Under the pieces are notes generated by a model. That model saw nothing but the letters and a program-made list of their open reading frames with translations, was not told the origin of the DNA and ran no database searches. A stretch of 64,000 nucleotides of DNA, taken from NCBI RefSeq assembly GCF_036971445.1, contig NW_027211947.1:1-64000 (forward strand). Direction: 5' to 3'. The DNA comes from Narcine bancroftii. Taxonomy: Eukaryota. Shown one piece after another: positions 17,988 through 57,712 of this stretch (position 1 is the first letter of the stretch; every line of letters starts with the position of its first letter). The translations under genes and the position numbers were made by a program.

Positions 17988-18365
17988 GTAATTATTTGTT
18001 TTGGAATATCTGTGTGCCTCTACAAGTACATCGGGTTTGCAGTAGTTGCTTTACTGGTCGAAATCAACTCGATCCTTCTCCACCTGAGGCAGATTCTTCT
18101 GATGGCCAACATGCGTAAAACCACAGTTTTCCGCATCAACAGCATCGTCAACCTGGGAACGTACGTCATCTTCCGCATTAGCACACTGGCGTGGATGACT
18201 CGCTGGCTGGTCCTAAACCGTGACAACATCCCTCTGGTGATATACAGCATTGGCACTGTGGGAATGGCTGTTATGACGGTGATGAACATCGTGCTATTTT
18301 ATCGACTGTTGAAAAGTGACTTCCTGAAGTCCAGCAGAGAAGCGAAAAAGGAAAAAGAAAAGTAA
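17988..18365 (+). CDS. TLCD2: TLC domain-containing protein 2, last coding exon
   Basis: ttctcag acceptor; VIICFG...GFAVVALLVEINSILLHLRQ...FRISTLAWMTRWLVLNRD...SDFLKS...KKEKEK*; synteny with PRPF8. Confidence 0.93.
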   Translation, partial: VIICFGISVCLYKYIGFAVVALLVEINSILLHLRQILLMANMRKTTVFRINSIVNLGTYVIFRISTLAWMTRWLVLNRDNIPLVIYSIGTVGMAVMTVMNIVLFYRLLKSDFLKSSREAKKEKEK

Positions 18366-19060
18366 ATTTGAAATTACATTCTACTTGTGCTGCGGATACT
18401 TGGATTTAATGACCAACACGGAAACATTTTTTGTTCCTTTTGAATAGAAATTTGGTTGAATTCAGTTAATATGAAATTCTGAACAGCTTGTGGGTCATAT
18501 TTGAAATATTTTGTCTTCACTTTTTAAAAAAATCTAACATTGTGATTTATATTTTAAAATGAAATTGTTACAATGATGATGCAATTCTAATTGTGATGGT
18601 TCTTTCAAGCAAAAGAGTAAAATTCCTAAATCTTCCACTTCGCATTGAACTGCATTGTACGAGTGTTATAAGCAGAGCACAGTTATGTGCCAGGCAATTC
18701 CAGCCGTTAGACCACAACCTCGACCACTGTGAAGGATGAAGGCGACTATTACTTGAAAATGTACCAGCTGTAGATGCTGCCCTTCCCAGCAACACCCTCA
18801 TCCAAAAATGAATTAAAAAAAAAACTTTTGGAATGTTTGTAACCATAAACACAAGGGGGATTCATTAATTCTTGAGTGTGTCAATTGTATTTAAGCTAAG
18901 AAAACAATGTGATGGATTGTAAATTCAGATGCCTGCAATTGTCATTTCAACCTCCAGAATACCATTATTCACTTAACATTTTGAATTATTGAAAATTTAG
19001 CGGGGGGGAGGGGGGGAGGGTGGGGAAGATAAAATGGTAGCACAGCAAATATATACAGGA

Positions 19061-19066
19061 AATAAA
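19061..19066 (+). promoter_or_regulatory. Candidate TLCD2 polyadenylation signal AATAAA
   Basis: About 700 nt after the stop in AT-rich unique sequence; other sites are possible. Confidence 0.35.
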
Positions 19067-20189
19067 ACATTGAACAATGCCATGAAGTACAATGTTTATC
19101 AAATTTCTTCATTTGGTTCGATAGGTTGTTCTTTGGTGTATGTAGAGTGAATGAATGCATGTTTTAAATAGACATGCAGATATTCTATGATTGTTTACAT
19201 GAGACATGGTCTCAGCACATGAATGTCATCATCCTAGAAGTGCATTGCTTCATAGGCTAGATTTCTTTTGGAAATGTATCAATGTATGCAACTTAAACAC
19301 TTTTGGAACTTTGGCTTTTTTTGTTATTTGTATCGGTATTTCATTACTAAATTGAGTTTCAAATATGTTCACACTAAGTATTTACTGTATTTGAATATTC
19401 ATACTTGTGATGTAAAGCTTTCAATGTTTGGAGTAATTATTTTTGTTTGTATGAAAAATGTCATTTATAGCAAATATTAATGTATTTTATCCAGCGGCAA
19501 ATGAGGTAACAATTTTTGAGATTTATTTTTGATGTTTTGACCAAAACAAATGTGTGGAATTTGCTCAAAAATATTAAACATGAAGCATTCATTCGGGTGA
19601 ATTTATGTCTCTTTCTGGAAGCATTTATGATTATAGGCAGGCTTTCTAAACTGGCAGACCAAGCACTTCCGGTCAGACCAAATGAGTAGCCGATTAGTAT
19701 TTTTTTTACATACAGCATGGTAACAGGCCCTTTTGGCCCATGAGGCAGTGCTGCCCAATTACACCCAAATAACATACCCCCCACCCCCCGCCTCTCGTAC
19801 ATCACTTTTAGATATTGAGCGTTGGTCTGATTTCTGCCCCTCTAATCATACATTCAATCTGAAAAATTATTTGCAGGATGAAAGGAGATGTGGGAAGCAT
19901 TAGCAGAGGTCTAGAATATTGTCTGAAAGGGAGGTACAGAACCCCTCTCCAAGACTGGCACTGTTTAGACATGAAGGTCATGACCAAATGTTGGAAGATG
20001 GGATTTGTTGCACAACCCCTGTGGTCCTAAAAGACCACCTTTGATCCTTCACTACAAGATGTCTTGGTGCCTCCAAATTTTTATTTTAATTTTTAGATCG
20101 GACTCCAATAATGTGATTAGAAATTTAGGAATGGGTGTAATCTATTCTTTAAAGTGTCGAATTCATCCCACGGTGACTTGATCTTATGA

Positions 20190-20540
20190 TGTGTTTATTG
20201 TCATACACATTTTACATGTACACCAAAATTCTGATTTGCAGTCGAACAGTTACTGGTAAAGAAAAACTGATAGTAAACAATTACATTAATTGAGACATTA
20301 AATACATGATGGACAGAAATAGTCACAGTGATCCTAGTGCAAAAAAAAAGTGATTTGTAATAATGCAAACAGTCCTTTTGTGATGTTTGAACAGTCTGTG
20401 ATTAATGAACAAAGGGTAGGTTCAAGAGCCTGGTAACCGTTGGGGAAAAAAAAACTTCCTGAATGTGGAACTGCTGGATTTTGGCTTCTGTGTCTTCTGC
20501 CCGAAGGTACCAGTGAAAAGAGGTTGTGACCAGGGTGCAA
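20190..20540 (-). mobile_element. Rex1/Babar-like 3' fragment
   Basis: HPGHNLFSLVPSGRRHRS. Confidence 0.65.
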
Positions 20541-21277
20541 AGGACAATAGATCTGCCACTACACATGACTCCCACCCCATAAGTTGGAGATCAGCCCCCT
20601 TTGCAATGTCTTACAGATTTTAGGGTTTGTTGGAGGGTGATCAAATATTGGATAGTCAGGGCAGGATGAGAGAGAGGATGATCAAAATGAATGGGAAGAG
20701 GACCTTTGGGGATGATGGGAAATTAATGGATGCAGTTATTCTGAGGATGAGGTTATTGAAAATGGGGTTTGAGATGATGGAATAATTGGTAATGTTTAAA
20801 GAAGGCAGCTACCGGGAAGAAGATGGAATCCTCAAACTAATAATGGTTTGGTTGGATTGATATTCTTAATGAATGCAGTTCAACTCTGGTTAACTGTGGT
20901 GTGGTGTTAGGGCCTCACAAACAGGATTTTGTCCATGAACCAATAAAAGCATCATATTTCCAATCAAGCAATTAAGTTAGGCACAGTTTTAAATGAGACG
21001 AGATTATCAAATATTGCTCACTCCATACAGATTAATATGTTAATGTTATAAATCACTAACATGCATCCAAATCATTACCATAACTTAAAAATAACAACCA
21101 ATTAATTTTTAAAGGGTACTTGAATGAGTGTATAAAACTTCAATTTTTTTCATCAGCTTAAATGCAGAAATCACATTGAACTCGAGTAAATAAAGGTAGA
21201 GCATCTTAAATGAAAATGTACATGTTCTTTTTCTATCTCAACATACACTTTTACCAGGCCCAGTTTGAACCCCAATA

Positions 21278-21283
21278 TTTAAT
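21278..21283 (-). promoter_or_regulatory. Candidate calpain polyadenylation signal ATTAAA
   Basis: About 130 nt downstream of the TGA stop on the minus strand. Confidence 0.35.
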
Positions 21284-21411
21284 GACATAAACACACAAAA
21301 GACTGTTAGAATGGCTGTGATGGATACAGCAGTGATAGATTAAACCTGTGTTGGCTAATATCATTCATCAGTAAATTTTCTTCTGCTTCTTGTTATTGGT
21401 CTTGTCAAACT

Positions 21412-21663
21412 TCAGCAATATTCCATTCCTTCTTCTCCAAGGTTGAATCCTTCATGAATCTGAATTTCGGTTTTAGTGAAAATCCGCAGCATAAATGATC
21501 CATCGGTGTCTGGTGCAAAGGTACTTGGAATAATGACATAGTGTCCTGGCATCAGTTTGCTATGGAGGGTTATGCTTCTCTGGGCTACATAGGCTCCTGA
21601 ATCTGAAACCTCTGTATGATTTGTAAAATGCTGAGCAGTTAGAACTCTCTGGGGATCATAAGA
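21412..21663 (-). CDS. Atypical calpain, coding exon 12 (last; end of CBSW/C2L domain, stop)
   Basis: ttttaacag acceptor; SYDPQRVLTAQHF...SGAYVAQRSITLHSKLMPGHYVIIPSTFAPDTDGSFMLRIFTKTEIQIHEGFNLGEEGMEYC*. Confidence 0.92.
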   Translation of the reverse strand, partial: SYDPQRVLTAQHFTNHTEVSDSGAYVAQRSITLHSKLMPGHYVIIPSTFAPDTDGSFMLRIFTKTEIQIHEGFNLGEEGMEYC

Positions 21664-21689
21664 CTGTTAAAAAGAAAAATGTACAACTT

Positions 21690-22080
21690 TTAAGGTTAGG
21701 GGGAACATTAGGGGGAGCTTCTTCACACAGGGATGGGGGGGGGGGGGGTTGTGGAATGAGCTGCCAGCTGAAGTGGTGAATGTGGGTTCAATTTTCAGAT
21801 TTATTGTCAGAGTACGGACATGACATCACACACCCTGAGATTCTTTTTCCTGCAGGTAAGGCACTTACTGGTTATGCAAAATCTACACACATATAAACAA
21901 ATTTTTAAAATGTAACACATTTTTAAAAATTTAACATTTGATTAGAATTTGGACAGATTAATAATTGGGAGGGGTGTGGAGGGCTGTGGATTGGGGGCAG
22001 GTCAGTCAGATAAGGTAGAAAAATAGTTTGCCACAAACTAAAAGGCCTGAAGGGCCTGTTTCTGTGCTGTAACGCAGTCT
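21690..22080 (+). mobile_element. CR1 3' fragment with a nested insert
   Basis: Similar to 4720-4960. Confidence 0.6.
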
Positions 22081-22502
22081 GATTCTAATTGCAATTTAAT
22101 TTTTGTGTTTGCTCCTTGCATTGAACGCTGCTTGGAGAACAAACCATTATAAACCCTCATTATAAAGGCGTCTTCACAGAATTTCAAAAAGGTTGTTATA
22201 AAGCAGAATGAGAAAATACGAAGACTCTTTCTGAATGTTTGGAGGCTGGGTTAAAAATTAGGTTTGACTTTGGATGACTTATATCCAATCAAGGCCTCTA
22301 CAGCTAGCAATGAGATGGCACTCGTGCTATATTAATCATGATTGATTAAATAAAACTCGTTAACATTGATGACACATTAGCAGGCAAGTGTGGGTGTGTT
22401 CTGTGTTACATTTACCCTCATTGCCACAGAACAAGTATTCATCGCTGAATAGCTTTGTAAAGAACTATAGTTTTCTTTGCATAATATAAATTTTCAACTT
22501 AC

Positions 22503-22624
22503 CTTGTAAATCTGAATCCCAATGGGACTCATTGAGATTCCAAGCTTCCTGTTCATCCTTTTGTAATTCTGAATTAAACAGATTAGAATAGAACATGCCC
22601 CATCTTCAAGGTCTTCATCACCAT
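22503..22624 (-). CDS. Atypical calpain, coding exon 11 (CBSW acidic loop)
   Basis: cag...gtaag; DGDEDLEDGACSILICLIQNYKRMNRKLGISMSPIGIQIYK; phases 1 and 0 fit the neighbouring exons. Confidence 0.92.
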
Positions 22625-23009
22625 CTGAGTGATAGAGCAGACAAAAAAATAGCTTATTATAATAAATCCTCACTTAGCCAAACAGCTGGAAGAACAAAAA
22701 TAATGAGTGACCAATTGGAATAAAAAGATGAAGTGACATTTTTCAGCCTGTTGTTTTAAAGCACAATGACAAATGTTGAAAAATGTCTTTTCTTCTCTCC
22801 CAGCCTTTTTTATTCAAATGCCTGTCTGCTTTTTGCTCCTACCTTGAAGATGGACTGAAATGTCAGTTATGCATCTTTACCTCCTATGGGCCCTGCAAGA
22901 CCCACTGGGTTCCTCCAGCATTTTTTGCGTTTTTACTACAATCACTGCACCTGCAAACTTTTGTGTTTTATTGCAAGTTTTATTGAAGAAAGAATGGTTT
23001 ATGGTAACA

Positions 23010-25360: not shown

Positions 25361-25483
25361 CTGTTTTTGCGATGGTTATGGGGTATTGAGGGTTACAACT
25401 GTAACTGTTAATATTATTTCTGCATCCACCTGCATTTATTCCAATCACCCACTGACACTTCACTTCTTTCAAGCTGCCAGCAT
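25361..25483 (-). CDS. Atypical calpain, coding exon 10 (CBSW start)
   Basis: ttacag...gtaag; DAGSLKEVKCQWVIGINAGGCRNNINSYSCNPQYPITIAKT (W....AGGC.N....NPQY motif). Confidence 0.93.
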
Positions 25484-27223: not shown

Positions 27224-27309
27224 CTGCTCCTCCGTCATCATCAAAGTCGGGGCCCAGTGTCAAAACTGTGATATTTGCAAACTTCTGGCAAAAGTCATCA
27301 AATTTCATC
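27224..27309 (-). CDS. Atypical calpain, coding exon 9
   Basis: cacag...gtaat; (W)MKFDDFCQKFANITVLTLGPDFDDDGGA. Confidence 0.92.
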
Positions 27310-27407: not shown

Positions 27408-27485
27408 CAGAATTCTCCATCCGCCTTCTTGGTAAATCCAAATGATTCCCTTGTCCAGAATGGGATTTGATTCCATAGAGGTGAA
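27408..27485 (-). CDS. Atypical calpain, coding exon 8
   Basis: aaag...gtggg; (D)SPLWNQIPFWTRESFGFTKKADGEF(W); 98-bp intron follows. Confidence 0.9.
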
Positions 27486-28119: not shown

Positions 28120-28680
28120 TTCAGGATATTGACCAAACCATAGAATGCGTGGACAGAGAGGTACCACTCTAACTGTACAAGACAGCAAGAATAGTGTAAT
28201 TTATGGACACCACATTACAGAAATGATGAGGTTGCGCAGGAGACTAACTTGGACGTTGCCAGGTATTTTCTGTTATGATTAAGGTTGCCTTTGTGGAATT
28301 GTTTTCCTTGAAATGAAGAAGACTGAGGGGAAATTTAATTCAGATTCATAAATTTATGAGAGACTTGAGAGGATGAACAGGATGGACCCACTTCCCTTAG
28401 CGGAGAGGTCGATAATGAGGGAACATTGTTAATCAACAGAAAGAACAGAAGGGAGCTGAGAAAAGAAAATCCCACCGAGTGGTGGCTTCTGTAACTCACT
28501 GCCAGAGAGGGTGATGGAAGCAAAAACCTCACATTTGAAAGGTACCTGGTTGAGCACTTGGAGAGTCTGGACCTGGAAAGACACGGATCATAAGAATTGG
28601 AGTGGGATTAAACATAATAGATCAATTTTCCTAGAATGGACATGATGGGCTGAAGAGCCTCCTTTCTGTGCTCTAAATTA
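28120..28680 (+). mobile_element. Old CR1 3' fragment
   Basis: Degenerate similarity to the other CR1 tails in the window. Confidence 0.55.
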
Positions 28681-28903: not shown

Positions 28904-29778
28904 CACTGGTGTCACTATGGGGGTGCAGGGGGTTTGGACCACACTGGGTGACACCATCAGAGAGGGTGACATCAAAATGACTCTCTATAAAATTTTTGTA
29001 CATTGTTTCAGCAGAAATTTATTATTTTTTATAAAAATATCCCTGTAGTTAGTTATAACAACAAAAACATGTCTCATAAACCCAGTTTACATGTATCAAT
29101 GTACCTACAAGGCTAAAACTCGATGCAAATTTACTTTTTGAACCTTCTCAAGTTGGAGCTGTCATTATAACCCAATTACAATGATCCTTTGAATCACGCG
29201 CATGATATTGTAATTTAAAGGTGTAATTTTAATTTTGCTTGTTGTTTATCTCACTACTATAGGTGCACCAAAGAAAAGGTACAAGGACTGCCTAAAGAAA
29301 TCTCTTGGTGCCTGCCACATTGACCACCGCCAGTGGGCTGATATCGCCTCAAACCGTGCATCTTGGTGCCTCACAGTTCGGCGGGCAGCAACCTCCTTTG
29401 AAGAAGACCGCAGAGCCCACCTCACTGACAAAAGACAAAGGAGGAAAACCCAACCCACCATTTTTCCCCTGCAGCCGCTGCAACCGTGTCTGCCTGTCCC
29501 GCATCGGACTTGTCAGCCACAAACGAGCCTGCAGCTGACGTGGACTTTTACCCCCTCCATAAATCTTCGTCCGCGAAGCCAAGCCAAAGAAGAATAGCCA
29601 TTATATTCAGTGATCTAAAGGAATTATGATTTACAAGTAACATTAGGTACAAAAAAGCATTATTAAGGATTCTGTATGGTCGAGTATGGGAGGAGATCCT
29701 GGGGTGGGGGGGGGGGGGGTGGGATGGTGACACCATGAGTTATCGCACTGGGTGACACCAATCCTAGTGATGCTACTG
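28904..29778. mobile_element. Non-autonomous DNA transposon (hAT-like CAGTGGCGTCACTAGG-type ends) interrupted by an RTE insertion
   Basis: Imperfect TIRs CACTGGTGTCACTA / TAGTGATGCTACTG; partial second copy at 36660-36845. Confidence 0.55.
29262..29595 (+). mobile_element. RTE-clade LINE 3' end (longest copy)
   Basis: GAPKKRYKDCLKKSL...W...A..R..W, zinc knuckle FPCSRCNRVCLSRIGLVSHKRAC*, GAA tail. Confidence 0.85.
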
Positions 29779-33366: not shown

Positions 33367-33461
33367 TCGTCACCCCAGTCCCCTGTCCATTCCATGTTTT
33401 TCCCTGATCCCCATGGATTGAGAATCCGAACAAGGGGCACTCTTCCTTTTGGAGTAGTTAG
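33367..33461 (-). CDS. Atypical calpain, coding exon 7 (catalytic Asn)
   Basis: tttag...gtaagt; LTTPKGRVPLVRILNPWGSGKNMEWTGDWGD. Confidence 0.95.
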
Positions 33462-34205: not shown

Positions 34206-34277
34206 CTTTTTAACTGCAGTAACTCCATAGGCATGCCCAGCAATTAAACCATCTTGGTTTTCATATCTGTTATCTCC
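34206..34277 (-). CDS. Atypical calpain, coding exon 6 (catalytic His)
   Basis: tttag...gtaat; GDNRYENQDGLIAGHAYGVTAVKK. Confidence 0.95.
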
Positions 34278-36845: not shown

Positions 36846-36855
36846 TCTATCTTAC

Positions 36856-37036
36856 CCTTCCTGTTCCACAGGCCATTAGAGCATTCTTCCTGGAGGCAGC
36901 AGCAAGACGATCGTACAGTTCCTCATATCGATCTGCGTAGTCTGAGAATCTGTAAATTTCACCCACACCACCAGTGAGGTCAGTCAGGGCATCCAGCGTC
37001 CATCCTCCTTCAATCGCTTTATATGAACCATGTAAC
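36856..37036 (-). CDS. Atypical calpain, coding exon 5
   Basis: cacag...gtaag; (K)LHGSYKAIEGGWTLDALTDLTGGVGEIYRFSDYADRYEELYDRLAAASRKNALMACGTGR. Confidence 0.95.
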
Positions 37037-39045: not shown

Positions 39046-39073
39046 TGACGAGTCGTTGATCAGATTTACTTAC

Positions 39074-39257
39074 TTTGCAAATGCCTTTTCAAAAAGCGAT
39101 GGCCAAAATTCATTGCTGGCTTCTGATCGAGCATAAATAAGTTGTCCATTTCTTGTTGGCAAATAATCATCCACCAAAATTTCTACCCATTTCCCAAATT
39201 GCCAGAATCGGAAACGAAAGATTCCATAGTATGGAGAGCTGCCGGTGATAAACTGGC
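39074..39257 (-). CDS. Atypical calpain, coding exon 4
   Basis: tacag...gtaagt; GQFITGSSPYYGIFRFRFWQFGKWVEILVDDYLPTRNGQLIYARSEASNEFWPSLFEKAFAK. Confidence 0.96.
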
Positions 39258-44061: not shown

Positions 44062-44287
44062 TTAATTTTATTAACTCTTCACTCTTTATTTTGGGGGGAG
44101 GAGGGCTGGACTAATTTTAAGTTAGATTACTAATATTGTGTTACAATTAACGGGGGGGGGGGGTTATTTTGTGTAGTTTTCTGATGCAATATTGTAATCA
44201 TACCATTTTAATTTTTTAAAAATTTTTCTTTAAATGTAATTCTCTATTGTATTTATGTTATAAAATTTTAAATAAAGTCTTCAAAAA
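44062..44287 (+). mobile_element. L1-like 3' tail with 16-bp TSD
   Basis: AAAGTTGGGCAAAAGG at 44046-44061 and 44288-44303; AATAAA plus A-tail. Confidence 0.7.
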
Positions 44288-45155
44288 AAAGTTGGGCAAA
44301 AGGCATTTAAAATGCCACTGGCTTCCTCCCAGAAACATGTGCTACAGAAAAAAAATTATAGTTTATACAGCATATGAGAATGATAGCATAATCAATTTAG
44401 TGCAATTGTTGACACTTTGATGGGTAGCAATCACAGAAGGTGATCATCCTTTTAAAGGCATATTTCCCTGACCACTAGACATTTAATGCACATTTAATGG
44501 TTTTCATGGAGGAGAGAGAAAAAAAGAAAGAGAGCTTCACAGTTCAGGCAAAATGACATCAAAATGCAGATAAAGGTCAGAAAGGATATTGATATGAGGT
44601 AGCTATTAGAAGACCCTTACAGTTAGCTCTAGATCTCTCCTCCAGGTCTTGATTTGCCTGGTAACCTCATGCTGTGGTGATATTTACTATTGGTTACCAT
44701 CTTTGGCCTGCCTCCGTGCTGACTGCATCAGTGATTCCTTCCCTTGGAATCCCCTAATAAAGGCTGTTACGGCCAGACCTCTCCCCCAGTATAAACTCTG
44801 GACTCGGGCCAAGCAACATGAGTGTACATACAGTTTTAAGCAATTAAAGCCTACCGTTCTGGCAACTTTTAGTCTTTGAAGTTGATAGATTTTGGAATAA
44901 GGCATCTGTTTCACAAATCTAATGTTGGCCATGCAAATTACAACTCAAAGCAGCCAAATGAATTTAATTAAAGTCTCAGTTCTGGGGATATTGACCTGAA
45001 CCATTGTTCTGCTGCCCTTTATAAGAGGCCTGTATAACTTTATTTTTTTTTTTAGTTTTGTTTGCAGTTACATTTTAAAAAGCTAATTCAAAATATTAAT
45101 TTGGGAACTACAATATGAACAATAAAGTCTCAGTTTTAAAAATATTATTTCTTAC

Positions 45156-45300
45156 CTGATGGAATAACCCTCTCTGTTAATCTTTTGTATTTGGCTATTG
45201 TAGCCACTGATGCCCAAAACCAACAGTCCCCCAGCTCACCCTGCACAATATCACTTTTGCTAACTCCATCTGTCATAAAGAAAGGATTTTCGTGCAGGTC
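45156..45300 (-). CDS. Atypical calpain, coding exon 3 (catalytic Cys)
   Basis: ctag...gtaag; DLHENPFFMTDGVSKSDIVQGELGDCWFWASVATIAKYKRLTERVIPS. Confidence 0.96.
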
Positions 45301-45369
45301 CTAGAGCAAAGAAATAACAGACATGTAAATTGAACACTCCTCCACTCTTCAGCATTTCATTGTTCTTTG

Positions 45370-46035
45370 GTTTTAAAATATTTTTATTCATTTTAATAAA
45401 GAAGTTATACAAAATAAAAGGTACAATTCAATAAGATGATATGGAAGGTTACGCAAACTTAATAAGGCATTCTGTGTAACAAAAACCTACAAATTGTAAA
45501 TTATATCCATAATTCATATTATAAATAGTATATACCTTTTTGGGAAAAAAACCTCTAATAATACAAAAAAATTAAAATAGTAAAGGAGAAAAATTCGACC
45601 TTACCTTACCTATATGATTAGTATTCAAATAAAAATGAAGGTAGAAAAAAGTATTAATATAAGGAACATGGAAAAGACAATTTAATTACATTGAAGTGAA
45701 ATTATGAAGTAAGATGGTGAGTCATAAATGACTCCAATAACCTCTGGAATCTCATATTTGAATTATTAATTGAATAACAAATCTTTTCCATATTCAAACA
45801 GGACGCGATGTCACACAACCACTGATCATGAGTAGGCGGGGCATCATCCTTCCATTTAAGTAAAATCGTGTGCCTCGCCAAAAGAGAAGGAAAAGAAATG
45901 ATGGGTCTCTGAAACCAGGGACAAAGAAGATCATCACCTCCTGTTGTGCCAAAGAGAGCTATCAAAGGATTCGGTGTTAAATCAATATTTTTGATAAAGT
46001 ATGGAAAATCTCTCTCCAGTATTTTTCTAGACAAT
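45370..46035 (-). mobile_element. L1 LINE ORF2 C-terminus and 3' UTR
   Basis: PNPLIALFG...LLARHTILLKWKDDAPPTHDQWL. Confidence 0.75.
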
Positions 46036-46894
46036 AAGAAAATAAGTCTAGAAAAATTATTAATAAGAATGAATTGTTAGCATTTTGAAATTTACAGAAC
46101 AATATAATGAAGCACATTAGGTCTGTGATAAAGCTGTCCATTTAATTCCATGACCATCCCATCAGTCTTCTCTCTCTCACAGACATTTTCCTTCAACATA
46201 TTTATCTCAAGATTCAAAATTCAATTTATTGTCATGTAATAAAAAACACATTATATAACACGAAATTGCCTTTTGACTGCTATAAAAGAGATAGGAAGAA
46301 TTTGCCTGAAGCACCGCTTACAGTCAGAGAAAGAGAAGCAAAAGAGAGACCACAGCTCCCCACCAACAGAATCACTGAACATTTGTGGAATTGCCTCCAG
46401 TGCTCCCGCAAACTCCGCGGCCACACAAGAGTCCAGTTCAAATCATTGCCATCTCGAGCACCAGATCCAAACTTCCGAAATGATAAGGAACCCTTAAGCA
46501 TCCTTGGCACCTTCTCGCGTCTCAGATCCAATACCTGGTTACCCCTTCAGCCAGTTTCAAGCCAGTGTCCAGCAGTCCGCAACCTGGTGTGAGTTCCTTC
46601 ATCGCAGTCTCCAGCAGCGTGGCTTTGTCACCTCGAGTCACCAACAGCCTGCTGCCTGTGTGAGTCCATCAGCCGCAGAACCCCTCATTGGCCTGGTGCA
46701 GTGGTCACCATCCTCTGCTTCTCCTTCTCAGACGAGGGGTGGGGGGATGGTCTCCCTGTTTTCTGGTGCCCTGCACCAGTCCTCCGCTTTCCAGGAGAAT
46801 GCAAACCCCTTGAGGCTGCAGCTGATCAGAGGCACCTGATCAGCTGGATGAAGACTCCACAGTTACGGGATTTTAAATAAAATCAATTTATCTC

Positions 46895-47118
46895 GGGCAG
46901 CAGCCTCCTTTGAAGAAGACCGCAGAGCCCACCTCACTGACAAAAGGCAAAGGAAGAAAAACCCAACACCCAACCCCAACCAACCAATTTTCCCTTGCAA
47001 CCGCTGCAATCGTGTCTGCCTGTCCCGCATCGGACTGGTCAGCCACAAACGAGCCTGCAGCTGACGTGGACTTTTTACCCCCTCCATAAATCTTCGTCCG
47101 CGAAGCCAAGCCAAAGAC
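46895..47118 (+). mobile_element. RTE-clade LINE 3' end
   Basis: Near-identical to 32425-32650. Confidence 0.85.
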
Positions 47119-47689
47119 ATCACCTCCACTATAAGGAAATGTCTCCAGGCAGTTTGTTTCAGAGAGGCAAAAAAATGTTGCAAGCATATATATATATAAT
47201 CATATAACAGTTTATGGCATGGAAACAGGCCATCTCGGCCCTACAAGTCCATGCTAGTTCACTCAAACAACTCCGCTAGCTCCCCCGCCTATTCTCCGCC
47301 CATAACCCTTCAACCCCCTCTTATCCATGTATATATCCAGCCTCCTCTAAAGTGACTCTGCCTCAACTATTTCCTCCAGAAAATTATTCCATCCAGCCAC
47401 CACTCTCTGTCTTTACGGAGTTTGTACATTCTCCCCCTGTCTGTATAGGTTAAGAAATTGACTGCCCATGGAGCATTCAGGAAAGTGCAGTAAAACACAA
47501 CAGAAAATGCTGAAAGTGTTCAAGAGATCAGTGGCCTTTTGGAAAATGTAAGGTCGAGCTTTCATCTTGTGGTTTTCATTGTGAATTAATTTCTGCTGAA
47601 TGGGATTTTAAATTATACACCCAAAGTGTTTATCATTCTATTTCTGACTGACTCTTTAACATTCCAGTTTCTTTGCCTTCATTTTATTT

Positions 47690-47807
47690 CTTCTTTTCTT
47701 CTTTGGCTTGGCTTCGCGGACGAAGATTTATGGAGGGGGTAAAAAGTCCACGTCATCTGCAGGCTCGTTTGTGGCTGACAAGTCCGATGCAGGACAGGCA
47801 GACACGA
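47690..47807 (-). mobile_element. RTE-clade LINE 3' end (short, inverted)
   Basis: TTCTTTGGCTTGGCTTCGCGGACGAAGATTTATGGAGGGGG, reverse complement of the same family. Confidence 0.85.
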
Positions 47808-48164
47808 TCCCTTGACAAAAGACCATCAAATTTGTAAATGATTTGAATGAGACTGAGGTAGAGTCATTTCTTTTCCACTACTAATTGTCCATGGGACAAT
47901 GCCATTATACTTTTGTGAAGAAATAGAGCCAAACAAGAGCACTGACTGATCAATATTCCATTCCATCTAACATAGAGTAACATGGATAGATAATTGCATC
48001 CATTTTGCACTGTTGCCTAAAATAAATTTCCCACACCACATCAGGAAGAAAACCCTAATCTTCTCAGTCACTTCATTTCCAATGGCCATTTAAAACTCCA
48101 GAATATTTTTGCATAATTGTTTTTTATGACGAGACAAATCAGAACAAGGCCAATTTGTAGTTAC

Positions 48165-48296
48165 CACGGTGCGAATCCATTTGATTCCTTCTGGGACCAC
48201 ATGTTCATAGGTTAACGATGAAGGCTCAGGAAGAAAATCAGGATCTACCCAGAGTTCTCCAGTCACTTCAAGTTCTTTTATAATATTCTGATAGTT
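48165..48296 (-). CDS. Atypical calpain, coding exon 2 (start of CysPc)
   Basis: attcag...gtaac; NYQNIIKELEVTGELWVDPDFLPEPSSLTYEHVVPEGIKWIRTV (DP.F.P...SL...W.R motif). Confidence 0.92.
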
Positions 48297-48519
48297 CTGA
48301 ATAAAATGAAAAAAATATTAGTACCAAGTGTCACACTGGCCGTGTTTCTACTGAGCGATGAAAATTCGGGGCAATGCGAGGTGATGCGAGGTGATACAAG
48401 GTGTCCCAGTAGAAACACGTACATTGCAGACCAGCAGCAATAGAAATTCACCAAGACAGTGTGATTTTTAAACAATATATTTATTAATAACTACTAATAA
48501 TATATTAATTAAATTAATC

Positions 48520-48523
<4 letters not shown>

Positions 48524-48570
<47 letters not shown>
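48524..48570. repeat. (TG)n microsatellite
   Basis: Direct observation. Confidence 0.95.
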
Positions 48571-48577
<7 letters not shown>

Positions 48578-50467
48578 TACCCAAAACATTACAGCTTAGG
48601 CACAATTCTAGAAAGATATTCCAAAGTTCAGTCTTGGAAATCCTGTCTTGAAACACAGGCTTTTAAACTGATGCCCAGAAGTAATCACGAAGGAGGTGGG
48701 AGAGACTGAGTGACCGACTGCTGAAAACTCACAAATCCTCGTCGAGTTTCTTGCTGAGAAATATACTTTTGTGTGAACGGTGGTCACAACCCTCCTTTTC
48801 CTTGCATAGGGGAATTGAAACGTGTGACTTCCACGATGCTTCCACAACCCAGGTATGGGTCAGTCGAAATGACCATTACTTTGGTCACAATCCGATACAG
48901 AAATTCTCCAGCATCCAAAACCCAAGGAGGTCAGTCAAAGTGACCTTTCCTTTGGCCACGGTGTGGTTCAATAATTCCCCTGACATGGAGAAACAGCCGA
49001 GTTGTCCATTTCACACAGAGTCACTCCACCTTAGATGGCTGATGGTCAATAATGTTTCCTTCAGTGATCCATCAGTATTCCACCTGTGTCCCTGGATAAA
49101 GCAACAAATGTTCTTTCTCTTCCTCCAGAGTATCAACTTTGGGTATAGGCTGTACTAGATATTGACACCCAGTCCCTCCACATCTGTGAATGGTTGCAGC
49201 CAGTACAATCCCTTAAAATGATACTCACACTAAATGAAATGAAAGATCATAATACAAGATATGTAAGTTGATTTTACATCCATAAAACCACCTGATATCT
49301 GAATTCTAGACATTAATATTTTAAAATAAATTACCAAGGAATCTCCAATGTAATTTTTGATTGTGTGTTTAGCTATTCTGTAGGGGAATTAAAACTTGCT
49401 TCTGTATTAGTATGATACTAATGTTGAACACAAAGTCCATTTGTAAAGCTATCAGATTATTTTAATTTAATTGTTTGATTAAGAAATTGTATGATTCAAA
49501 CGTGCTGATGTTTTCAAGCTTCTTATTATTTTAAAGGTGAATTAATCCATTAATTGTGGAGTCAATGACAACAAAAATGATTTCTAAATATTAGGACAAT
49601 GTTTGAAATAACTCAAATGCCTTACAATGAATTGAAACATTTTCATTTAATTTTACTCCCACCAATCACCAATAAGTAATGAGTGTTTCTTTGGTGGGTT
49701 ACACATTTGAGCAAGCTAAAAAAAACTCACAAAACAATAGAGACCAAATGTCAAAAATGTAATCATTTCAATGTTTTTTACCTCACATTATTATTCACAG
49801 ACCTGAATCAGGAATATGAATGTACAGATTTAGAAGTGAATCCTGAAATGTTTCTTAGATGTTTACTTAATTATATAATCTTGAGGTGTGGTGGGGGGGG
49901 GGGGGGGGGAATGTAGAAGTGTATTACATTGGTCTCAATTATAAAACCAGCATCATCTTTGTTAAGGTTGTGGTCAGTTTAAATTGCAATCACTTATAAA
50001 TGCATTTCAGTTTATAAAGGTATTAACAAAGAATGTTCTATTACCTATGTAAAGTATGGAAACAAACTAATATAGAGCCGAAGAGTTATAGAGTAGATTA
50101 ATTTAGTTTATTTATATAGCACATTTAAAACAACTCATGTTGACCAACGTGCTGTACAGATTATAAATTACATCTTGACTTAAGCAGCTATTTAAAGTGC
50201 GGTATAAAACAGGCTTACTTCCATGCCTGTGCATAAGTAAATACCAAGGGGCCCAGGGCGATTCAGTATGTTTAACTTTACTCTGGTGAACAATTATGAG
50301 AAATTTTACAGATTTAAAAACTTTACCTTGCAACTACCCAATGTAACTAAAACAATGAACTTCAAAAAGATTTCAATCTTTCAAGGACAAATTGTAAGAA
50401 AATGTAAAATGCAGTTTGCATAAATCAGGCCAAGTTTTGACAGTAAGTGATATGTAAAAACGATTAC

Positions 50468-50743
50468 CGATTCAATAATTAGGTTGTCGTCTATTTTCAG
50501 CATTTCATTCACTTGATTCATTAGTTCCTCAATGTCATTCTTTCTAGGATGAAAATCAAGAAGAGCTTTCACATCCTCCGTGAGCATATTCCATTTTGAA
50601 TTGTCCCCTTTCACTTCTGACACTTTGTCTACTTTCATCTCCAGCACTCTCTTGCCATTACTGTTGCTTATGGAGGATGCATCTGCCTGTATGAAATGAA
50701 TTTGAGTTACAGTAGTATGGGTACATGAACAACTGTTCCCCAT
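50468..50743 (-). CDS. Atypical calpain, coding exon 1 (92-aa N-terminal extension with MGNSCSC)
   Basis: ATG immediately preceded by in-frame TGA; acceptor ttaacag at 50785/50784; donor TCG|GTAATC in phase 0 matches exon 2; no domain homology, so the link is inferred. Confidence 0.72.
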
Positions 50744-51378
50744 TCAGCACTGAATCCAAGTTTGCTGAGGTTAAGAGTGACACCTGTTAATTACATAGTC
50801 ATAAGATATACAGGAAGATCTTTCAGAAACTGGAATCAATTACCTCTGTTGCTACGAGACATGACACACAATGCCCTCCTTCTGGGAAAAGCAACTCTTT
50901 TAGAGTCATATTTTTATAACAGACACTTCAGACAAAGTGTCTGAGCAATTCTGTATTCATCTCAACAAAAAAAGTCTTAATTTGTCCAAAAAGCAATGTA
51001 TTACAAAGGACTTGTTGACCTGAACTGATGTGGTTACTTAAGGGGACAAATTGTTGCACTCCTTTCCTGACCTTCTGTGTGAGTGAAAGGGAGATATGAG
51101 CAAATGAACAGTTAATCATTTCAAATTTGTTGCAGATTCGAGACTTGCACAATGAAAACAACAGATGAAAGCATTTGCCAACAAAATGCTTTTTTCATCA
51201 GTCTACCAAAGAGGACAGATGAGGGCTGAGCAGTTATGTTGTCTGCATGGACTTTAGCAAGGGCTTTCACAAGGTCCTACGTGGTAGGTTGTTTTGGAAG
51301 ATTTGATCACATGGGATCCAAGAAGAACTAGCCAATTAGATTCAAAAATGGTCAGGAGGTAGGAGTCAGAAGGTAGTC

Positions 51379-52200
51379 GTGGTAGTCCCTTCACAAGTCA
51401 CCTATAACTGTGTGGCTCAATATAACAACGCCATTTACAAATTTGCTGACAACACCACAGTAGTGGGCTGTATAAAAAGGGCTGATGAGTCAGCTTTCAG
51501 GTGGGAGACTGAAAACTTGGGTGAATGGTGTACAAACCACAACCTCGCACTCAATGTCACTAAGACCAAGGTGCTCATTGTAGACTTTAAGAAAGGAAAA
51601 CCAGAGATGTACAACCCATTGATCATTGAGGGATCAGAGGTGGAGAGAGTGACTAAATTGAAATTTCTGGGAGCCACTATCTCGGAGGACATGTATTAGA
51701 CTCACCATACTAACATCATTGTGAAGAAAGCATGTCAACGCCTCTACTTCCTTAGGAGTTTGCAGAGATTGGGTATGTCATTGTAAACCTTGGCAAACTT
51801 CTGTAGATGTGTGGTGTAAAGTGTGCCGACCAGCTGCATTATGGCCTGGTATGGGGGTACCATTACCTCAGCAGAGAGCCCTGCAAAAGGCATTGGATTG
51901 TAGATTGTAGGCAAAACTCACCTCACTTATCGAGAACATCTACAAGGAACACTGACTTCAGAGAGCAGTAACAACCATCAAGGATACACACCACCCAGAA
52001 AATGCTCTTCTCTCTCTGCTACCATCGAGAAAGAGATATAGGTGCTACAAAGATGGCACCACTAGGTTCAGGAACAGTTATTACCCCTCCACCATCAGAC
52101 CGCAAAGCAGCAGACTCAATTTGGGACTCTTTTAAAATCTGTTACTTGTGCATTCTGTACATTCTGACACGAAACATTGTCTGCACCTGGCCAATGCACA
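51379..52200 (+). mobile_element. Rex1/Babar-like LINE (RT C-terminus and 3' end)
   Basis: YKFADNTTVVGCI...WCTNHNLALNVTKTKVLIVDFKK...KFLG. Confidence 0.85.
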
Positions 52201-52333
52201 ACGCCCTGCAATAGCCTTTGTATAAACAATGGGTAATTGTTAAAAAGAAAATCACGCAAGCTTTTTTCTTTCTTCCTGCAAGGTTTCCTCCCCAGCTTGC
52301 CTTAGGACACGTGCATTAAGGTATGACAGATGT

Positions 52334-52662
52334 TCGAACAAATATGGGAGCCATACATAAAACACAATAGAGAAATCCTACCATGGACTTCCACCACCTA
52401 AAATGACAGAAGGAGAAGATAACGAAAAGAACTGACTCAGTAAAATTTCTTGTTTATTTTTATTAAGTGACAACATTGTTTAACGGGTTTAATGTATCTT
52501 ATAGATTGAACTTCAAATAAATGGGCAAGGGGGTGAGGGAGGGAGGGAAGGGAGGGGTAAAAAGGGGGAGAAAACAACACTGTATATATTTAAGAAGAAA
52601 AATGTCTGCATGTATCTTGGTCAATATGGTTTATAGTGTGAAAAATAAAAAAAAATTAAAAA
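52334..52662 (+). mobile_element. L1-like 3' tail with TSD
   Basis: AAGGT(A/G)TGACAGATGT at 52318-52333 and 52663-52678; homolog of 525-863. Confidence 0.7.
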
Positions 52663-53081
52663 AAGGTGTGACAGATGTAGCATCCCAATCAAACTCCCCA
52701 TATGGCATTGCCTCCAGGCTCATGAGTCTATGACAATAATCTCAATAGATGGACAGACTGAAATGCGTGAACAAATGTGGGCAGGCAATTGTTTTTGTAA
52801 AAAGGAATTTGAGATCAATTACACTCATTTCAGAAGAGCAGCTCCTTGATTTATGTAGCTGTGACTCTCTGTACCTTGGTAGATGTGACAATAAACTTGA
52901 ATACATAGGGAATGGAAGGTTATGGATCAAGTAAAACGTAAAGGGATCAGACAGAAGGGATTTATTTTTATTTGACATCAGGTTTGGTGCAGACATCAAG
53001 GGCTGGAAGACCTGCTCCTGTTCTGTATTGTTCTATTTTCTATCTTTATTATCTTATCATATGTTATAAATTTTAAAAATA

Positions 53082-53974
53082 CCAAATATTCTCGTGTAAA
53101 AGTCAAATTTTGTAGACCATTTTTTAATGTTAAATTTATGGGGTGATTATACATGGATACTACTTTTGAAGGGCTGAAATATCAGAATCAGAAACAGAAT
53201 TTATTGACATGAACAAGTCATGAAATTTGTTGTTTTGTGGCAGAATCACAGTATTATAGGCATCTTTTTACATTACTATGAAAGAAGTAAAAATAACAGT
53301 GCATGAAAAGTAAGGTAGTGTCTTTGGTTCCTTGATTATTCAGGAATCTGATGGCAGCGGGGAAGGAGCTGAGTGCTCGTCTTTAGGCTCCTGAACTTTT
53401 TCCCTGATGGTAGCAGAGTGAAGAGGTCATGGCCTGGGTGGTGGTGGGGGGGGGGGTCTTTAAGGATAGAGGCTGCTTTTTTAAGTCACCACCTCATGTA
53501 GCTGTCCTCCATGGAATGAAGGCTGGTGCCTGTGATCTCGCAAACACATGTATGCGACATCACTGGAATCTAAAATACCCTATCAATAGCAGATCCAAAT
53601 GATTTCTAAACAAATAAAGAACAAAAACGCAATGAATTAAAGCAATAATACAGAGTCTGTGCATCAAAGCATTTGTCTTACCACGAGGGTTGGGACTGTC
53701 ATATCTGTGTTAATGGAGGCTTTGGGAGCTCCGATCAGTGGGCAGCCGGGGCTGAGGTGAGACTCAGTGTCCGAGGCATCAGGGGCTCTGAGAGATGGGC
53801 AACTGTGGCTGAGGCGTGAGTTCACAATCGAGGCATCAGGAGCTGCGGGCAGCCAGGGCTGAAATGAGAGACTTAGGTCAACTTTACACAAGATGTATGG
53901 AAAATTCCAGATTTTTTGGCCAAAAATAGGGGCTGACTTTTACATGAGATCGACCTTTACAGGAGTATAAATGG
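53082..53974. mobile_element. pogo/Tigger-like element (TA-flanked) with nested Rex fragment (about 53180-53545, minus) and internal GC-rich tandem units (53730-53880)
   Basis: Imperfect TIRs CCAAATATTCTCGTGTAAAAGTC / GACCTTTACAGGAGTATAAATGG. Confidence 0.55.
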
Positions 53975-54518
53975 TATTTGCTTAATGGCTTTTCCAAGTG
54001 TCATCCTGCAGTGTCAAAATAAGCACTAAATCTTTCAGATTGATCTTTAGTTTTCTGAACCAACCCTTGACTGGTAATATCAGTCATTCTGTAGTTAGCA
54101 ATTCTAATCATTGCTCACTGTAGTACATCATGAATTTAATTTGATCAAGAACTTTATTACATCACCTGGATCTTCTGCTTCAAACTCCTGAGCTGCTGCA
54201 TCTGAATTCACCTTTATCAAGTGGCTATTTATCTCTTTTGATTTGAAATCTTGCTCCTTTCAACTATTTCCACTTGAAGGAGATACATTGCAAGTCAGGT
54301 TCTACCCTCTCTGAATTAACTTCAGTAAAATGCAATGACTCTTACAAAGGTTCTTCCTGTGAAAAGGTGTTGGGCTTGGATTCAAATTGTCCCTTTACAA
54401 GTCATGGTAAATATCTGACAATGCATATAAATGGAGCAAGAATTTTCACAATTTGCATTATTTACATCTGCTGACATTGTTTCTGGACTGGAGCTTGCTT
54501 TTGACAATCTTATAATTA

Positions 54519-55098
54519 CTCTGGACAATATGTTTTTTTCAGAAGGTTTGCTTCCTGAAAAGAAAATGGGGATTACAATAGACAACTTCAAGTTGAGCAC
54601 AAAGATAATTACCGATTTGCTGTATCATGCAGGAAGTTGGAGGAACATTAAATTAACTTTTATTGCATTTAGCATGCTTAATCACATAAGGATGCTGTCA
54701 TATTGGATTCGTTCAACTGACCTAAAAATGTTTAGCCACTGATTTTCGTTTGCACTCAACATCTGATGCCTCTCAGGTCAGTGTCCAACAATAGTCGGCC
54801 GGCATCGATGGATTTCCACGGTCATGAGGTCCTGGTGAAACCTTTCACCATGTTCGTCACCGACTGCACCGACAGGGAAGAGGTCCAAGTGCAAGTGCAG
54901 AAAATGAATTTTCAATAACGTGTTGCACTTCATGGTTTTGTCTGCTTGAAAGAAGACAAATTATGACGGGAATTGATATAAATAGATTATATCTAAAAAA
55001 AGAGGCACCTGATAGGAAAAGTTTCATGTGATCAGCAGCTGAACGTCCAGAAAATACACCCATAGGTGTTCAGGAAGCCAAATCTTCGTTGTCCAGTG
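54519..55098 (-). mobile_element. Second Chapaev-like element
   Basis: Reverse-complement homolog of 40663-41233; ends CTCTGGACAAT / GTTGTCCAGTG; flanks TTA / TTG. Confidence 0.72.
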
Positions 55099-55369
55099 TT
55101 GTCAAACATCTGAAAGACCTACAGATTCCAGCCACTTACTCGCCTTCCACATCCAGCTGTTGACCTCTTCACTGTCCAAAATGAGCCTGCCTCTATTTTC
55201 TGGACAAGGATGAGCTCAAGGTTGAAGCCATTCTCTTCAGACTGATCCCAATTCTAATTCCCCAGTCTTTGATGCTTCCACTTTCAACCACTTGCATCAG
55301 AAGGCCAAATAATATTCTGCTCACATCTTTCAACCCACCTCGACAAGGGCCAGACCCCTGAGGTCGCAG

Positions 55370-55760
55370 TGTCAATCACACCCATGCCACCAATGGGCGG
55401 GGAGACCTCCGGAACCGGAAGTCCCGCCCATGCACGACCGGATGCCGGGCGTAGAGGTCTCGACTGGGTGCCAAGAACTAATGGAGGGTTGATTGCGAGT
55501 TTTGTCGGTGAAATCTGTTCCCAGGGACCGTTCCGCTTGCGGGGCTGAGGTGCGTTGCACAGACGGCGACTGAATGTCGGAGTCCGATGCATGCCGCTGG
55601 GGTGGGGGCGGATATGCGCGGCGCTTGAGGTTGGGCCTGGGATTGCAGGCTTCGTTGCGGCCTAGTTCATCGTGGCGACGCCGATGGGCGTTCTGGCTCG
55701 GTTGGGGCAACCAGCCTTGCAGTCTCCCTCTCCCCCAGCAAAGCAATGATCCAAGAAGAG
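55370..55760. promoter_or_regulatory. CpG-island promoter of PRPF8, probably bidirectional
   Basis: CpG-rich; CCAAT 55390-55394, GC box 55395-55402, tandem ETS CCGGAACCGGAAGT 55409-55422, CCCGCCC 55423-55429; plus-strand donor GAG|GTGCGT at 55549/55550. Confidence 0.8.
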
Positions 55761-56269
55761 CCAAACATTACCCGATGACCTCCTAAACTTATGTATTTAA
55801 TTTAATAGCATACTCCACTGCGAGGGTCGTGGGAGCAGATGCCACTGTCATTTTCAAAAGGGGTGTAAAATTAAGATGCAGTAAAGAAGTATGTGTTGAC
55901 TAACTGGTGCACAGGCACATGATGCGGTTGGGTCCCATATTTCAAACTTCTAAGGTTAAATTGAAGATAACATGGTCTATTCTAGAATGGAGGCCAAACT
56001 TATAAGCAGTTCACCTGGACTGAATCAGTGTAGCACAGGAAATATAATGTTAGATCTTGTACATTTAGTAATACTGAAACATGTTTAAAATGGGCTGCTC
56101 ACGATAACATTGAAAATACCTTATTTAGGTTACTTAAAGCAGCCACCGTCAATATCTTTGGACTTATCTCGGTGGTGGTGTGAAGTCGATGACTGCCAGC
56201 CTTAGAAAGTGGGTGCAGGCAATCTATGCTGCTGTTGAGTGTTTTCTGTGGTAGCTCTGTGCTCTGTCT

Positions 56270-56800
56270 ATTCAGAATCAGAATTTGTTGCCATGAGCAA
56301 GTCATGAAATTCGGTGTTTTGAGGCAGCATCGTATAACCATCTTACAACATTACTATAAATAAAAATAGTAGTGCACAAAAAGTAAGGCAGTGTCTTTGG
56401 TTCATTCATTATTCAGGAATTTGATGGCTGCAGAGAAGGAGCTGTCCTTGTGCTGCTGAGTGCTGTACCTTTTTCCTGAAGGTAGCAGTGTGAAGAGGGT
56501 GAGGCTTGGGTGGGGGGGGGTCTTTGAGGATAGAGGGTTTTTTTTTACATGCCCTTGATGGAGTGGTCTGGTGCCTGTGATGATGTAGGCAGAGGTAATA
56601 CCTCTCTGGAGTTTATTCTTGTCCTGTGAGTTGGCGCTTTCATACCAGGCATTGATACAACAAGCCAGAATACTCTCCACAGCACACCTGTAGAAGTTTT
56701 TAAGAGTTTTTGGTGACATATCGAATCTCCTTAGGCACCTCACAAAGTATAGCCGCTGGCGAGCCTTCTTTGTGATTGCATCAACAATATTCTTCTCCAC
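56270..56800 (-). mobile_element. Rex1/Babar-like 3' fragment
   Basis: KKARQRLYFVRCLRRF...FYRCAVESIL...LPSGKRY. Confidence 0.85.
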
Positions 56801-57615
56801 TATGACTTCAACAACTTGCCTGAAAACCAATCAGAATTCTGACAGAAAAATAGGACATCTAATGTTGAATGAAGAGTGGTTGGAGGGTCTCCACTGGATC
56901 AGGCAACATCCCTGGATAGAAACGTTCAGTCCACATTTCATGTTGGAGCCCTTTCTCAATAAAATCCCAACCTGATACATTGACCATTTCTATCCTTGTT
57001 ACTTCCTGCCTTGCTGAATCACTTCAGCTCTTCTTTCTGGTTTCCAGCATCTGCAGTTTTTGATTCTTGGGAAGTTCTACTATTCTTAATTTACATGGAT
57101 TAATGTGGAAGTTTTCAAAAGATTTCTGCATCTGCAAAAGATAATGGTAGTACTGTATCAAATTTGAAGGAAAAAACATGATTGAACAGGCCAGAAGATT
57201 GTACAGAATATAAGAAGCAGCAGAGAATGTGTAAAACTTATTAAAAGAAGAAATTAGTATGAAATAAACCCTACAAGAAATATAAAAATAGATGGTAAGC
57301 CTTTAGTGATATTGAAGGAAGAAAAGAAAGTAAATTTGGAGAATTAATGCAATAGGAGATTATTATCTATCTTCACTTTGAGAAGATACAGCTAACATTC
57401 CAGGAATGATTGAATCAGCATTTTCTTTTCAGAATGTTTAATACATTTGTTAATTATTTTATAGACAAAAAATGTTTTTGCCCCAATGGGTCCTGCGTGG
57501 TTTTTGCATTGCTAGAGCACTAATGAACGTTATTAACTAATGCACACCATATTAATTCTCACAATTGAATAGATATTAAAAGAAATGTAACTTGTCATTT
57601 ATTCAGAATCAACAA

Positions 57616-57712
57616 ATGATGGCAGCATTTCAGTTCAGGGGTCCTCCTGGGCCGAATCCAGTTTCAGTTCCTGTACCTGATTACATGTCTGAAGAAAAAT
57701 TGCAAGAAAAAG
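57616..57712 (+). CDS. PRPF8: Pre-mRNA processing factor 8, first coding exon (exon begins 57607)
   Basis: MMAAFQFRGPPGPNPVSVPVPDYMSEEKLQEK; G|gtaag donor. Confidence 0.95.

Follow-up and report, generated by a model that had tools for sequence, protein, structure and literature searches.

Why does a calpain gene lie between TLCD2 and PRPF8 in the ray Narcine bancroftii, in an interval where human has none? We addressed this question in the first 64,000 nucleotides of contig NW_027211947.1 (assembly GCF_036971445.1; hereafter the window), where a sequence-only reading had described a roughly 30-kb antisense calpain between the two genes and had proposed either an ancestral gene lost in the lineage to mammals or a lineage-specific translocation. 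Exon mapping and domain matches bear out this order and orientation, TLCD2 (+), calpain (-) and PRPF8 (+), as well as the extent of the calpain, whose 12 minus-strand coding exons span 50743-21412 (29.3 kb). The flanking genes presumably share one orientation in human as well. At human 17p13.3, PRPF8 adjoins TLCD2 with no calpain between them in the gene table of PMC5876250, as far as the available part of that paper goes. We conclude that the Narcine gene is very probably a vertebrate member of the ancient 'truncated' calpain family, composed of the protease core and one CBSW domain, and that it was probably already present in the ancestor of jawed vertebrates and has since been lost two or more times; this explanation, taken together with the mechanism proposed below, is the one we favour and regard as likely.

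The protein contains two Pfam domains only, PF00648 (333 bits) and PF01067, with one Calpain_III/CBSW stretch; EF-hand and C2 gave no match in the profile scan of the protein, and no remnant of a penta-EF-hand (PEF) or C2 domain was found after the stop codon, in the 3-kb gap downstream. In an IQ-TREE analysis of 54 chosen rows, the eight vertebrate rows form a clade (support 100/100), in agreement with species relationships, inside a 25-row invertebrate PEF-less clade (100/99), and the CAPN5-type rows are the sister of this truncated clade. The latter was also recovered by FastTree from 182 rows (support 98; five long or multi-core rows and most insect isoforms omitted) and by a mixture model from 33 rows (support 100). 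Approximately unbiased (AU) tests rejected union with 14 classical-type rows (p 6.7e-9; two of the 14 were named by tools, the others labelled by recall or tree position) and union with seven C2/CAPN5-type rows (p 3.2e-4); the vertebrate reference rows named by tools are turtle CAPN2, medaka CAPN5 and axolotl 'calpain-11-like' only. Besides vertebrates, the clade includes amphioxus, tunicates, hemichordates, echinoderms, molluscs, annelids, crustaceans and ticks, and core identity of the vertebrate gene is 42-46% to invertebrate members against 38% to CAPN5. None of 41 clade rows matched EF-hand or C2, in a scan whose controls gave matches in CAPN2 and two C2 types but none in the axolotl protein or in the short CAPN5 record from medaka. 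The long or multi-core rows P0276, P0294, P0304, P0306 and P0386 were excluded from the trees; P0276, a 651-bit hit, consists of two tandem classical-type cores whose scores were summed.

The Truncated family was described as bilaterian and weakly supported by Hastings (2017; PMC5650170), in Lottia, Crassostrea, Aplysia (AplTRUNC1), Limulus, Strongylocentrotus and Branchiostoma, and its activity, regulation and function were called an open question; the vertebrates sampled, according to the accessible text, were zebrafish, human, Xenopus and fugu (fugu for CAPN17). Our gene resembles this family in having the core and a single C2-like/CBSW domain with nothing after it, and in the phyla represented (molluscs, chelicerate, echinoderm and amphioxus), and differs from it as described in the available portion of PMC5650170, which has no vertebrate member, no loop of the kind discussed below and, in its main text, no 'myristoyl'. 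By architecture and tree position the Aplysia row P0181 may be the AplTRUNC1 of that paper, whose named sequences include XP_005105403.1, and the amphioxus accessions in its S1 table come from an older annotation. In the accessible parts of other studies, an amphioxus calpain was closest to annelid and oyster sequences (Rawlings 2015), CysPc-C2L was considered an ancient architecture (Zhao 2012), and a calpain survey covered classical, PEF-bearing members only (Macqueen and Wilcox 2014; PMC4043111). We found no description of a vertebrate truncated-family member in the literature searched, mostly titles and listings, with subscription journals outside its scope. The RefSeq 'calpain-A-like' models in early-diverging fish are automated models of the same gene, under a label that refers to calpain A of Drosophila, which is of the classical EF-hand type and is placed elsewhere in the tree, and other orthologs carry the automated names calpain-3-like, calpain-1-like and CAN9. 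The vertebrate gene seems to be unnamed and unstudied, and annotated only automatically under misleading names.

Protein searches identified orthologs in 16 species, which belong to the cartilaginous fish, bichirs, sturgeons and paddlefish or are coelacanth and lungfish (Narcine, Hemitrygon, Amblyraja, Leucoraja, Scyliorhinus torazame, Chiloscyllium punctatum, Heptranchias, Callorhinchus, Latimeria, Protopterus, three Acipenser, Polyodon, Polypterus and Erpetoichthys), with core identities of 70-91% among the seven compared. In a protein-database search that scored 8000 candidates, proteins of gar, bowfin, teleosts, tetrapods and cyclostomes were absent from the best 120 of 343 hits, and amphioxus, hemichordates and protostomes came below the orthologs in score. 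An index-free search gave the same distribution by score among its best 150 of 18,518 hits, in which relatives more than 50% identical are hidden behind representatives. TLCD2 is listed for dozens of tetrapod and teleost species, groups with no calpain among those best 120. Within chondrichthyans, 15 of 21 species with TLCD2 have no calpain ortholog listed and three genera have half models (Hemitrygon, Chiloscyllium and Scyliorhinus), gaps that reflect either poor annotation or further losses among sharks and rays.

We took equal size of the carrier sequences or near-consecutive accession numbers as a proxy for synteny, and by this measure calpain and TLCD2 are linked in 12 of 13 testable species (Latimeria, Amblyraja and Leucoraja are outside the 13). 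Accessions are consecutive or two apart in Narcine, S. torazame, C. punctatum and Callorhinchus (EukProt numbers); one sequence carries both genes in Heptranchias, Hemitrygon, Protopterus, Polypterus and Erpetoichthys; both lie on a 1.475-Mb scaffold in Polyodon, and in A. ruthenus and A. oxyrinchus the linkage is seen on both duplicated chromosomes. RefSeq accession distance was dropped as a linkage test, genes of the same contig being 500 to 40,000 numbers apart (Hemitrygon and Heptranchias). Since orthologs occur in all three jawed-vertebrate lineages with TLCD2 linkage, the gene appears ancestral and not a ray-specific translocation, which decides for the first of the two origins initially proposed. 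The loss looks earlier and wider than one in the lineage to mammals: neither tetrapods nor teleosts, gar or bowfin are among the best 120 of 343 hits, which points to one loss after lungfish branched off and another after sturgeons did. The gene would have been near TLCD2 in the jawed-vertebrate ancestor and would have persisted in chondrichthyans, in bichirs and sturgeons, and in coelacanth and lungfish, with independent losses in tetrapods and in neopterygian fish.

The calpain gene is real and expressed. Its model comprises 581 codons in a single open frame, and its 11 coding introns, all GT-AG (phases in order 0,0,1,2,0,0,2,2,1,1,0), exclude a recent retrocopy, as had been argued from the sequence. 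From residue 20 to the end the window translation agrees at every position with XP_069768840, a RefSeq 'calpain-A-like' protein of N. bancroftii, and the translation of exon 4 matches the RefSeq 'calpain-A-like' of this species at 100% identity. All exons are on the minus strand. Exon 1 in its long form (50468..50743) opens with MGNSCSC and contains an internal acceptor at 50686; exons 2 (48165..48296; also in the gene model), 3 (45156..45300; catalytic Cys and Ca2+ site 1) and 4 (39074..39257) are spliced in contigs; exon 5 (36856..37036) rests on the gene model, and exons 6 (34206..34277; catalytic His), 7 (33367..33461; catalytic Asn) and 8 (27408..27485; 78 nt, Ca2+ site 2 ligands) on the gene model and alignment. 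Exon 9 (27224..27309) encodes the Dx[DN]x[DN]G loop discussed below, at about 27248-27224, whose ninth residue is finished by exon 10 (25361..25483), where the CBSW domain starts, to continue in exon 11 (22503..22624), both from the gene model, and end with the stop codon in exon 12 (21412..21663), with no PEF or C2 after it. A 27-nt cassette exon (28546..28572, AG/GT flanks), present in RefSeq isoform X1 only, adds nine residues right after a Ca2+ site 2 ligand and is found in none of the aligned orthologs; transcript contig sizes agree better with its being skipped. Bichir and Chinese sturgeon draft models lack blocks that match Narcine exons 6, 9-10 and 7-8, and this match of gaps to exon blocks suggests that intron positions are common to the Narcine, bichir and sturgeon genes. 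A phage-family Pfam match on exon 1 was weak and below the cut-off, and was discarded.

Transcript evidence came from four public runs of one study, none recorded as RNA, which we took for RNA on account of their spliced contigs. Among the contigs of these runs mapped to 38900-58300, five are spliced across calpain exons, and in all four that extend to the 5' end, 53858-53682 is spliced to acceptor 50686. This upstream exon (53682..53858, minus strand; four contigs from four runs, RefSeq X1/X2, AG/GT flanks) provides an alternative start at ATG 53702, with the non-acylatable N-terminus MTVPTLV, as in RefSeq. The RNA form observed therefore omits the first 19 codons of the model that starts at 50743, and 50743-50687 had no coverage among the contig pieces listed. 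The frame of the 581-codon model of the sequence-only reading holds, whereas its start at 50743 is backed by conservation and not by RNA, which uses the upstream exon and acceptor 50686. For the 3' half, judged from contig size and not from alignment, the two longest contigs fit exons 5-12 plus an untranslated region (UTR) ending at 20188 and 20168, just beyond AATAAA at 20199-20194, and a 3' UTR at 20168..21411 (minus strand) is predicted from these sizes and this signal. The runs contain 0.35-0.49 of the words of 20800-22700, for which exons 11-12 and the UTR predict 0.52. Upstream, contigs carry 60, 67 and 68 extra 5' letters in three runs and 345 in one; of the donors between 53.9 and 55.7 kb, the one at 55339, where one unspliced contig ends, scores best, and a candidate calpain first exon is placed on these grounds at 55339..55407 (minus strand). 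Donor 55339 is in a CpG island (55241..55861) that contains the PRPF8 first exon, ending at 55549, and probably that of calpain, some 50 bases apart, so the island is likely a divergent promoter common to both genes. It includes a CCGGAAGT site, which we take to be ETS-like.

The catalytic triad is intact (C150, H309 and N333; P0001 numbering), and Ca2+ site 1 (G, D, E) and site 2 (E, D, D, E) are conserved, at core positions taken from the available part of PMC4631099. Triad and acidic Ca2+ ligands are kept in the aligned clade rows, except for one Asp-to-Asn change in a tunicate and residues missing in the lungfish fragment. Positions 89 and 319 differ from the listed residues; these are presumably backbone ligands. 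The AlphaFold model of a skate ortholog (pLDDT 79.5, residues 1-68 disordered) matches the fold of calpain-2 (TMq 0.73). In this model the segment equivalent to the Narcine loop, DFDDDGGAD, is a coil between strands, in the linker between core and CBSW. The Dx[DN]x[DN]G motif is carried by 11 of the 12 vertebrate rows that could be parsed (13 given) and by 21 of the 30 from the invertebrate clade (35 given). Among other calpains it occurs in one of 119 representatives (127 given) and in none of 85 classical members, most of them from arthropods. EF-hand-like Ca2+ loops have this pattern, defined as D-x-D/N-x-D/N-G with D/E/S/T/N at position 9 in the accessible text of PMC3123361, which does not contain the word 'calpain', and the Narcine loop fits the Dx[DN]xDG loop definition in this spacing, in its position 9 residue and in its loop location. 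We propose it, from sequence, as a candidate extra Ca2+ site specific to the family.

At the N-terminus, MG[NS]SCSC opens 12 of the 15 vertebrate models listed, from skates to bichirs, and is in frame in Narcine with AG acceptors just upstream; MG followed by Cys at position 3-8 is present in 18 of 35 invertebrate-clade rows against one of 127 others. A Gly2 with a nearby Cys is the rule for dually acylated N-termini, and MG-x-S-C-S-C is thus a candidate lipid anchor. CAPN5, for which S-acylation near the N-terminus is needed for membrane binding and activity according to the available part of the report (10.1101/2022.01.25.477766), serves as a precedent for acylation-dependent activity. Two conserved segments precede the core (window 50468-50600, minus strand; KWNxLT..KALLD and EELMNQVNE in chondrichthyans), and the skate model has a low-confidence helix at residues 69-85, in the same pre-core region; these segments are possibly an anchor or a pro-segment. 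In the ESM Atlas the protein fell in generic calpain clusters, and its N-terminal 105 residues gave nothing above 0.89.

From these features we suggest that the protein would be a monomeric, Ca2+-activated limited protease acting at membranes. As in other calpains, two Ca2+ ions at the core sites would align the Cys-His-Asn triad; the missing PEF domain would rule out pairing with a small subunit, and the EF-hand-like loop between core and CBSW would bind further Ca2+. The MG-x-S-C-S-C start would be myristoylated and S-acylated and hold the enzyme at membranes, and splicing to the internal acceptor 50686 would give an unanchored, soluble form. This full mechanism of a Ca2+-activated monomeric protease with a lipid anchor and an added loop Ca2+ site is offered tentatively, with a little less than even confidence.

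Several observations weigh against the explanation that we favour. The absence from tetrapods and neopterygians is one from protein databases, genomes being outside the search, and calpain is listed in six of 21 chondrichthyan species with listed TLCD2, several times as half models, so that non-listing can stem from annotation. The trees are unrooted and CAPN10 is not in the sample; the vertebrate stem branch is long (0.68-0.85), its sister inside the clade is not settled, and bit scores overlap between the family (433-305) and insect classical calpains (401-372). The scaffolds of A. sinensis calpain and TLCD2 did not match, and GenBank numbers are 20, 22 and 29 apart in A. oxyrinchus and Polypterus, which indicates that the sturgeon and bichir genes are linked and probably not adjacent; strict calpain-TLCD2 adjacency is supported in chondrichthyans only, and PRPF8 linkage is known from this window alone. 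With respect to mechanism, the paddlefish and amphioxus loops deviate from the Dx[DN]x[DN]G motif, and the observed RNA form omits the acylation motif.

The last of these points also favours a different account of the protein, with the same gene and the same history, in which a cytosolic enzyme would work on the two core Ca2+ sites, the loop being a structural linker, and the gene would possibly be decaying in many elasmobranchs. It would explain the sole RNA form observed, the half-length models in Hemitrygon, Chiloscyllium and Scyliorhinus, and the degenerate loop in one of 12 vertebrate and nine of 30 invertebrate rows; however, the conservation of MG[NS]SCSC from skates to bichirs, in frame in Narcine behind AG acceptors, the constant spacing D/N-x-D/N-x-D/N-G of the loop across phyla and the intact Narcine reading frame argue against it, and we judge it possible, if rather unlikely. 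Persistence of the family in tetrapods and teleosts, as an unannotated gene, a relict or a fast-evolving relative such as CAPN10, we consider improbable. The 15 chondrichthyans with listed TLCD2 and no listed calpain, and the weak grouping of CAPN10 with the Truncated family in the available part of Hastings (2017; bootstrap 36; PMC5650170), speak for it, but none of these groups is among the best 120 hits despite TLCD2 being listed for dozens of their species. CAPN10, the vertebrate 'Atypical' calpain, also has neither PEF nor C2, but it contains two CBSW domains according to the same source, and the Narcine calpain one, a comparison made by description; no CAPN10-named row was found among the best 150 index-free hits, most of which are nameless.

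The remaining alternatives survive less well. An origin as a third copy of CAPN5/CAPN6 from genome duplication, with the C2 domain lost, would agree with the sister position of the C2/Tra clade in the unrooted trees and, as we assume, with the 11 coding introns and 78-nt core exon shared with CAPN5 and with a paralogy of human 17p13 to 11q13-14 (CAPN5) and Xq (CAPN6). CAPN5, CAPN6 and TRA-3 are likewise non-classical and PEF-less, but they have a C-terminal C2 domain and lack the loop; the AU test rejects membership, core identity is higher to invertebrates, and loop and N-terminal motif are common to the invertebrate members and not to CAPN5, so that this origin is largely refuted and very improbable. 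A classical calpain translocated or duplicated in rays or chondrichthyans only, with loss of the EF-hands, has in its favour that among solved structures calpain-1 and -2 match best in both sequence and fold; classical CAPN1/2/3/8/9/11/12/13/14/17 do share the core fold, the triad, the two core Ca2+ sites and a CBSW with acidic loop, yet the Narcine gene has no penta-EF-hand and no remnant of one in the 3-kb gap past its stop, the AU test rejects membership, and TLCD2-linked orthologs in ray-finned and lobe-finned fish refute a local origin, which leaves this a negligible chance. Equally negligible are a local misassembly, suggested by the RefSeq record being on a 93-kb contig and by TLCD2 exons 1-2 being outside the window but contradicted by neighbouring accessions in two sharks and a chimaera and by the absence of N letters, and thus of an assembly gap, in the window, and a horizontal transfer from an invertebrate, suggested by the nesting of the vertebrate clade among invertebrates, when the vertebrate subtree tracks species relationships and amphioxus and tunicate members make vertical descent sufficient.

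The flanking genes were mapped on the plus strand. TLCD2 has an internal coding exon at 9936..10019 (tblastn, ends approximate) and its last coding exon, including the stop, at about 17989..18365 (100% identity to a record named TLCD2), both with TLC-domain matches. The RefSeq TLCD2 model matching the window opens with pieces at 3748-3903 and 7984-8085 (+), of which the first reads like what we take to be a LINE reverse-transcriptase fragment and the second is non-conserved; the true exons 1-2, known from four relatives, are absent from the window, and this odd start is likely a mis-annotation at the contig end. PRPF8 has a non-coding first exon at 55456..55549, with the furthest contig letter as 5' end and a GT..AG joint to 57607 in four of four runs, and its first coding exon at 57607..57712 (ATG 57616), with PRO8NT matches in later exons.

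Other features of the window are mostly repeats. A repeat of roughly 220 bp, in copies 89-97% alike (29382-29591, 32427-32649, 46894-47117 and 11215-11366), resembles what we assume to be the 3' end of an RTE-type LINE; in the 46.7-47.3 kb bin the contigs of the runs add up to a depth of 200,000-450,000, which indicates that this family is young and abundant. Two segments of about 600 bases in inverted orientation (40658-41230 and 54522-55103; 75% alike) are probably dispersed transposon copies, as both are in high-depth bins. The open frame at 56405-56830 (-) with a Pfam ALKBH8_N match is repeated at 53.2-53.5 kb and 37.4-37.8 kb, and is therefore probably LINE-derived and not a gene. Rfam and ARAGORN scans of the window gave no matches.

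Human, frog and zebrafish, the species from which the vertebrate calpain set was defined, all apparently lack this gene, and the set of the jawed-vertebrate ancestor would accordingly be one family larger than is recognised. The locus is also a clear example of a gene dropped more than once from a conserved block, masked by misleading automated names, and a full-length, RNA-supported vertebrate member makes the function of the Truncated family testable, including Ca2+ sensing and membrane targeting without EF-hand or C2 domains. More speculatively, and we hold this as doubtful, the family may be an unrecognised branch of CysPc-CBSW animal calpains, the third after the classical and Tra ones, which reached vertebrates and would be lipid-anchored, independent of a small subunit, equipped with its own loop sensor and switched between membrane and cytosol by the choice of first exon. 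If true, such a branch would show the role of a calpain before PEF or C2 domains joined.

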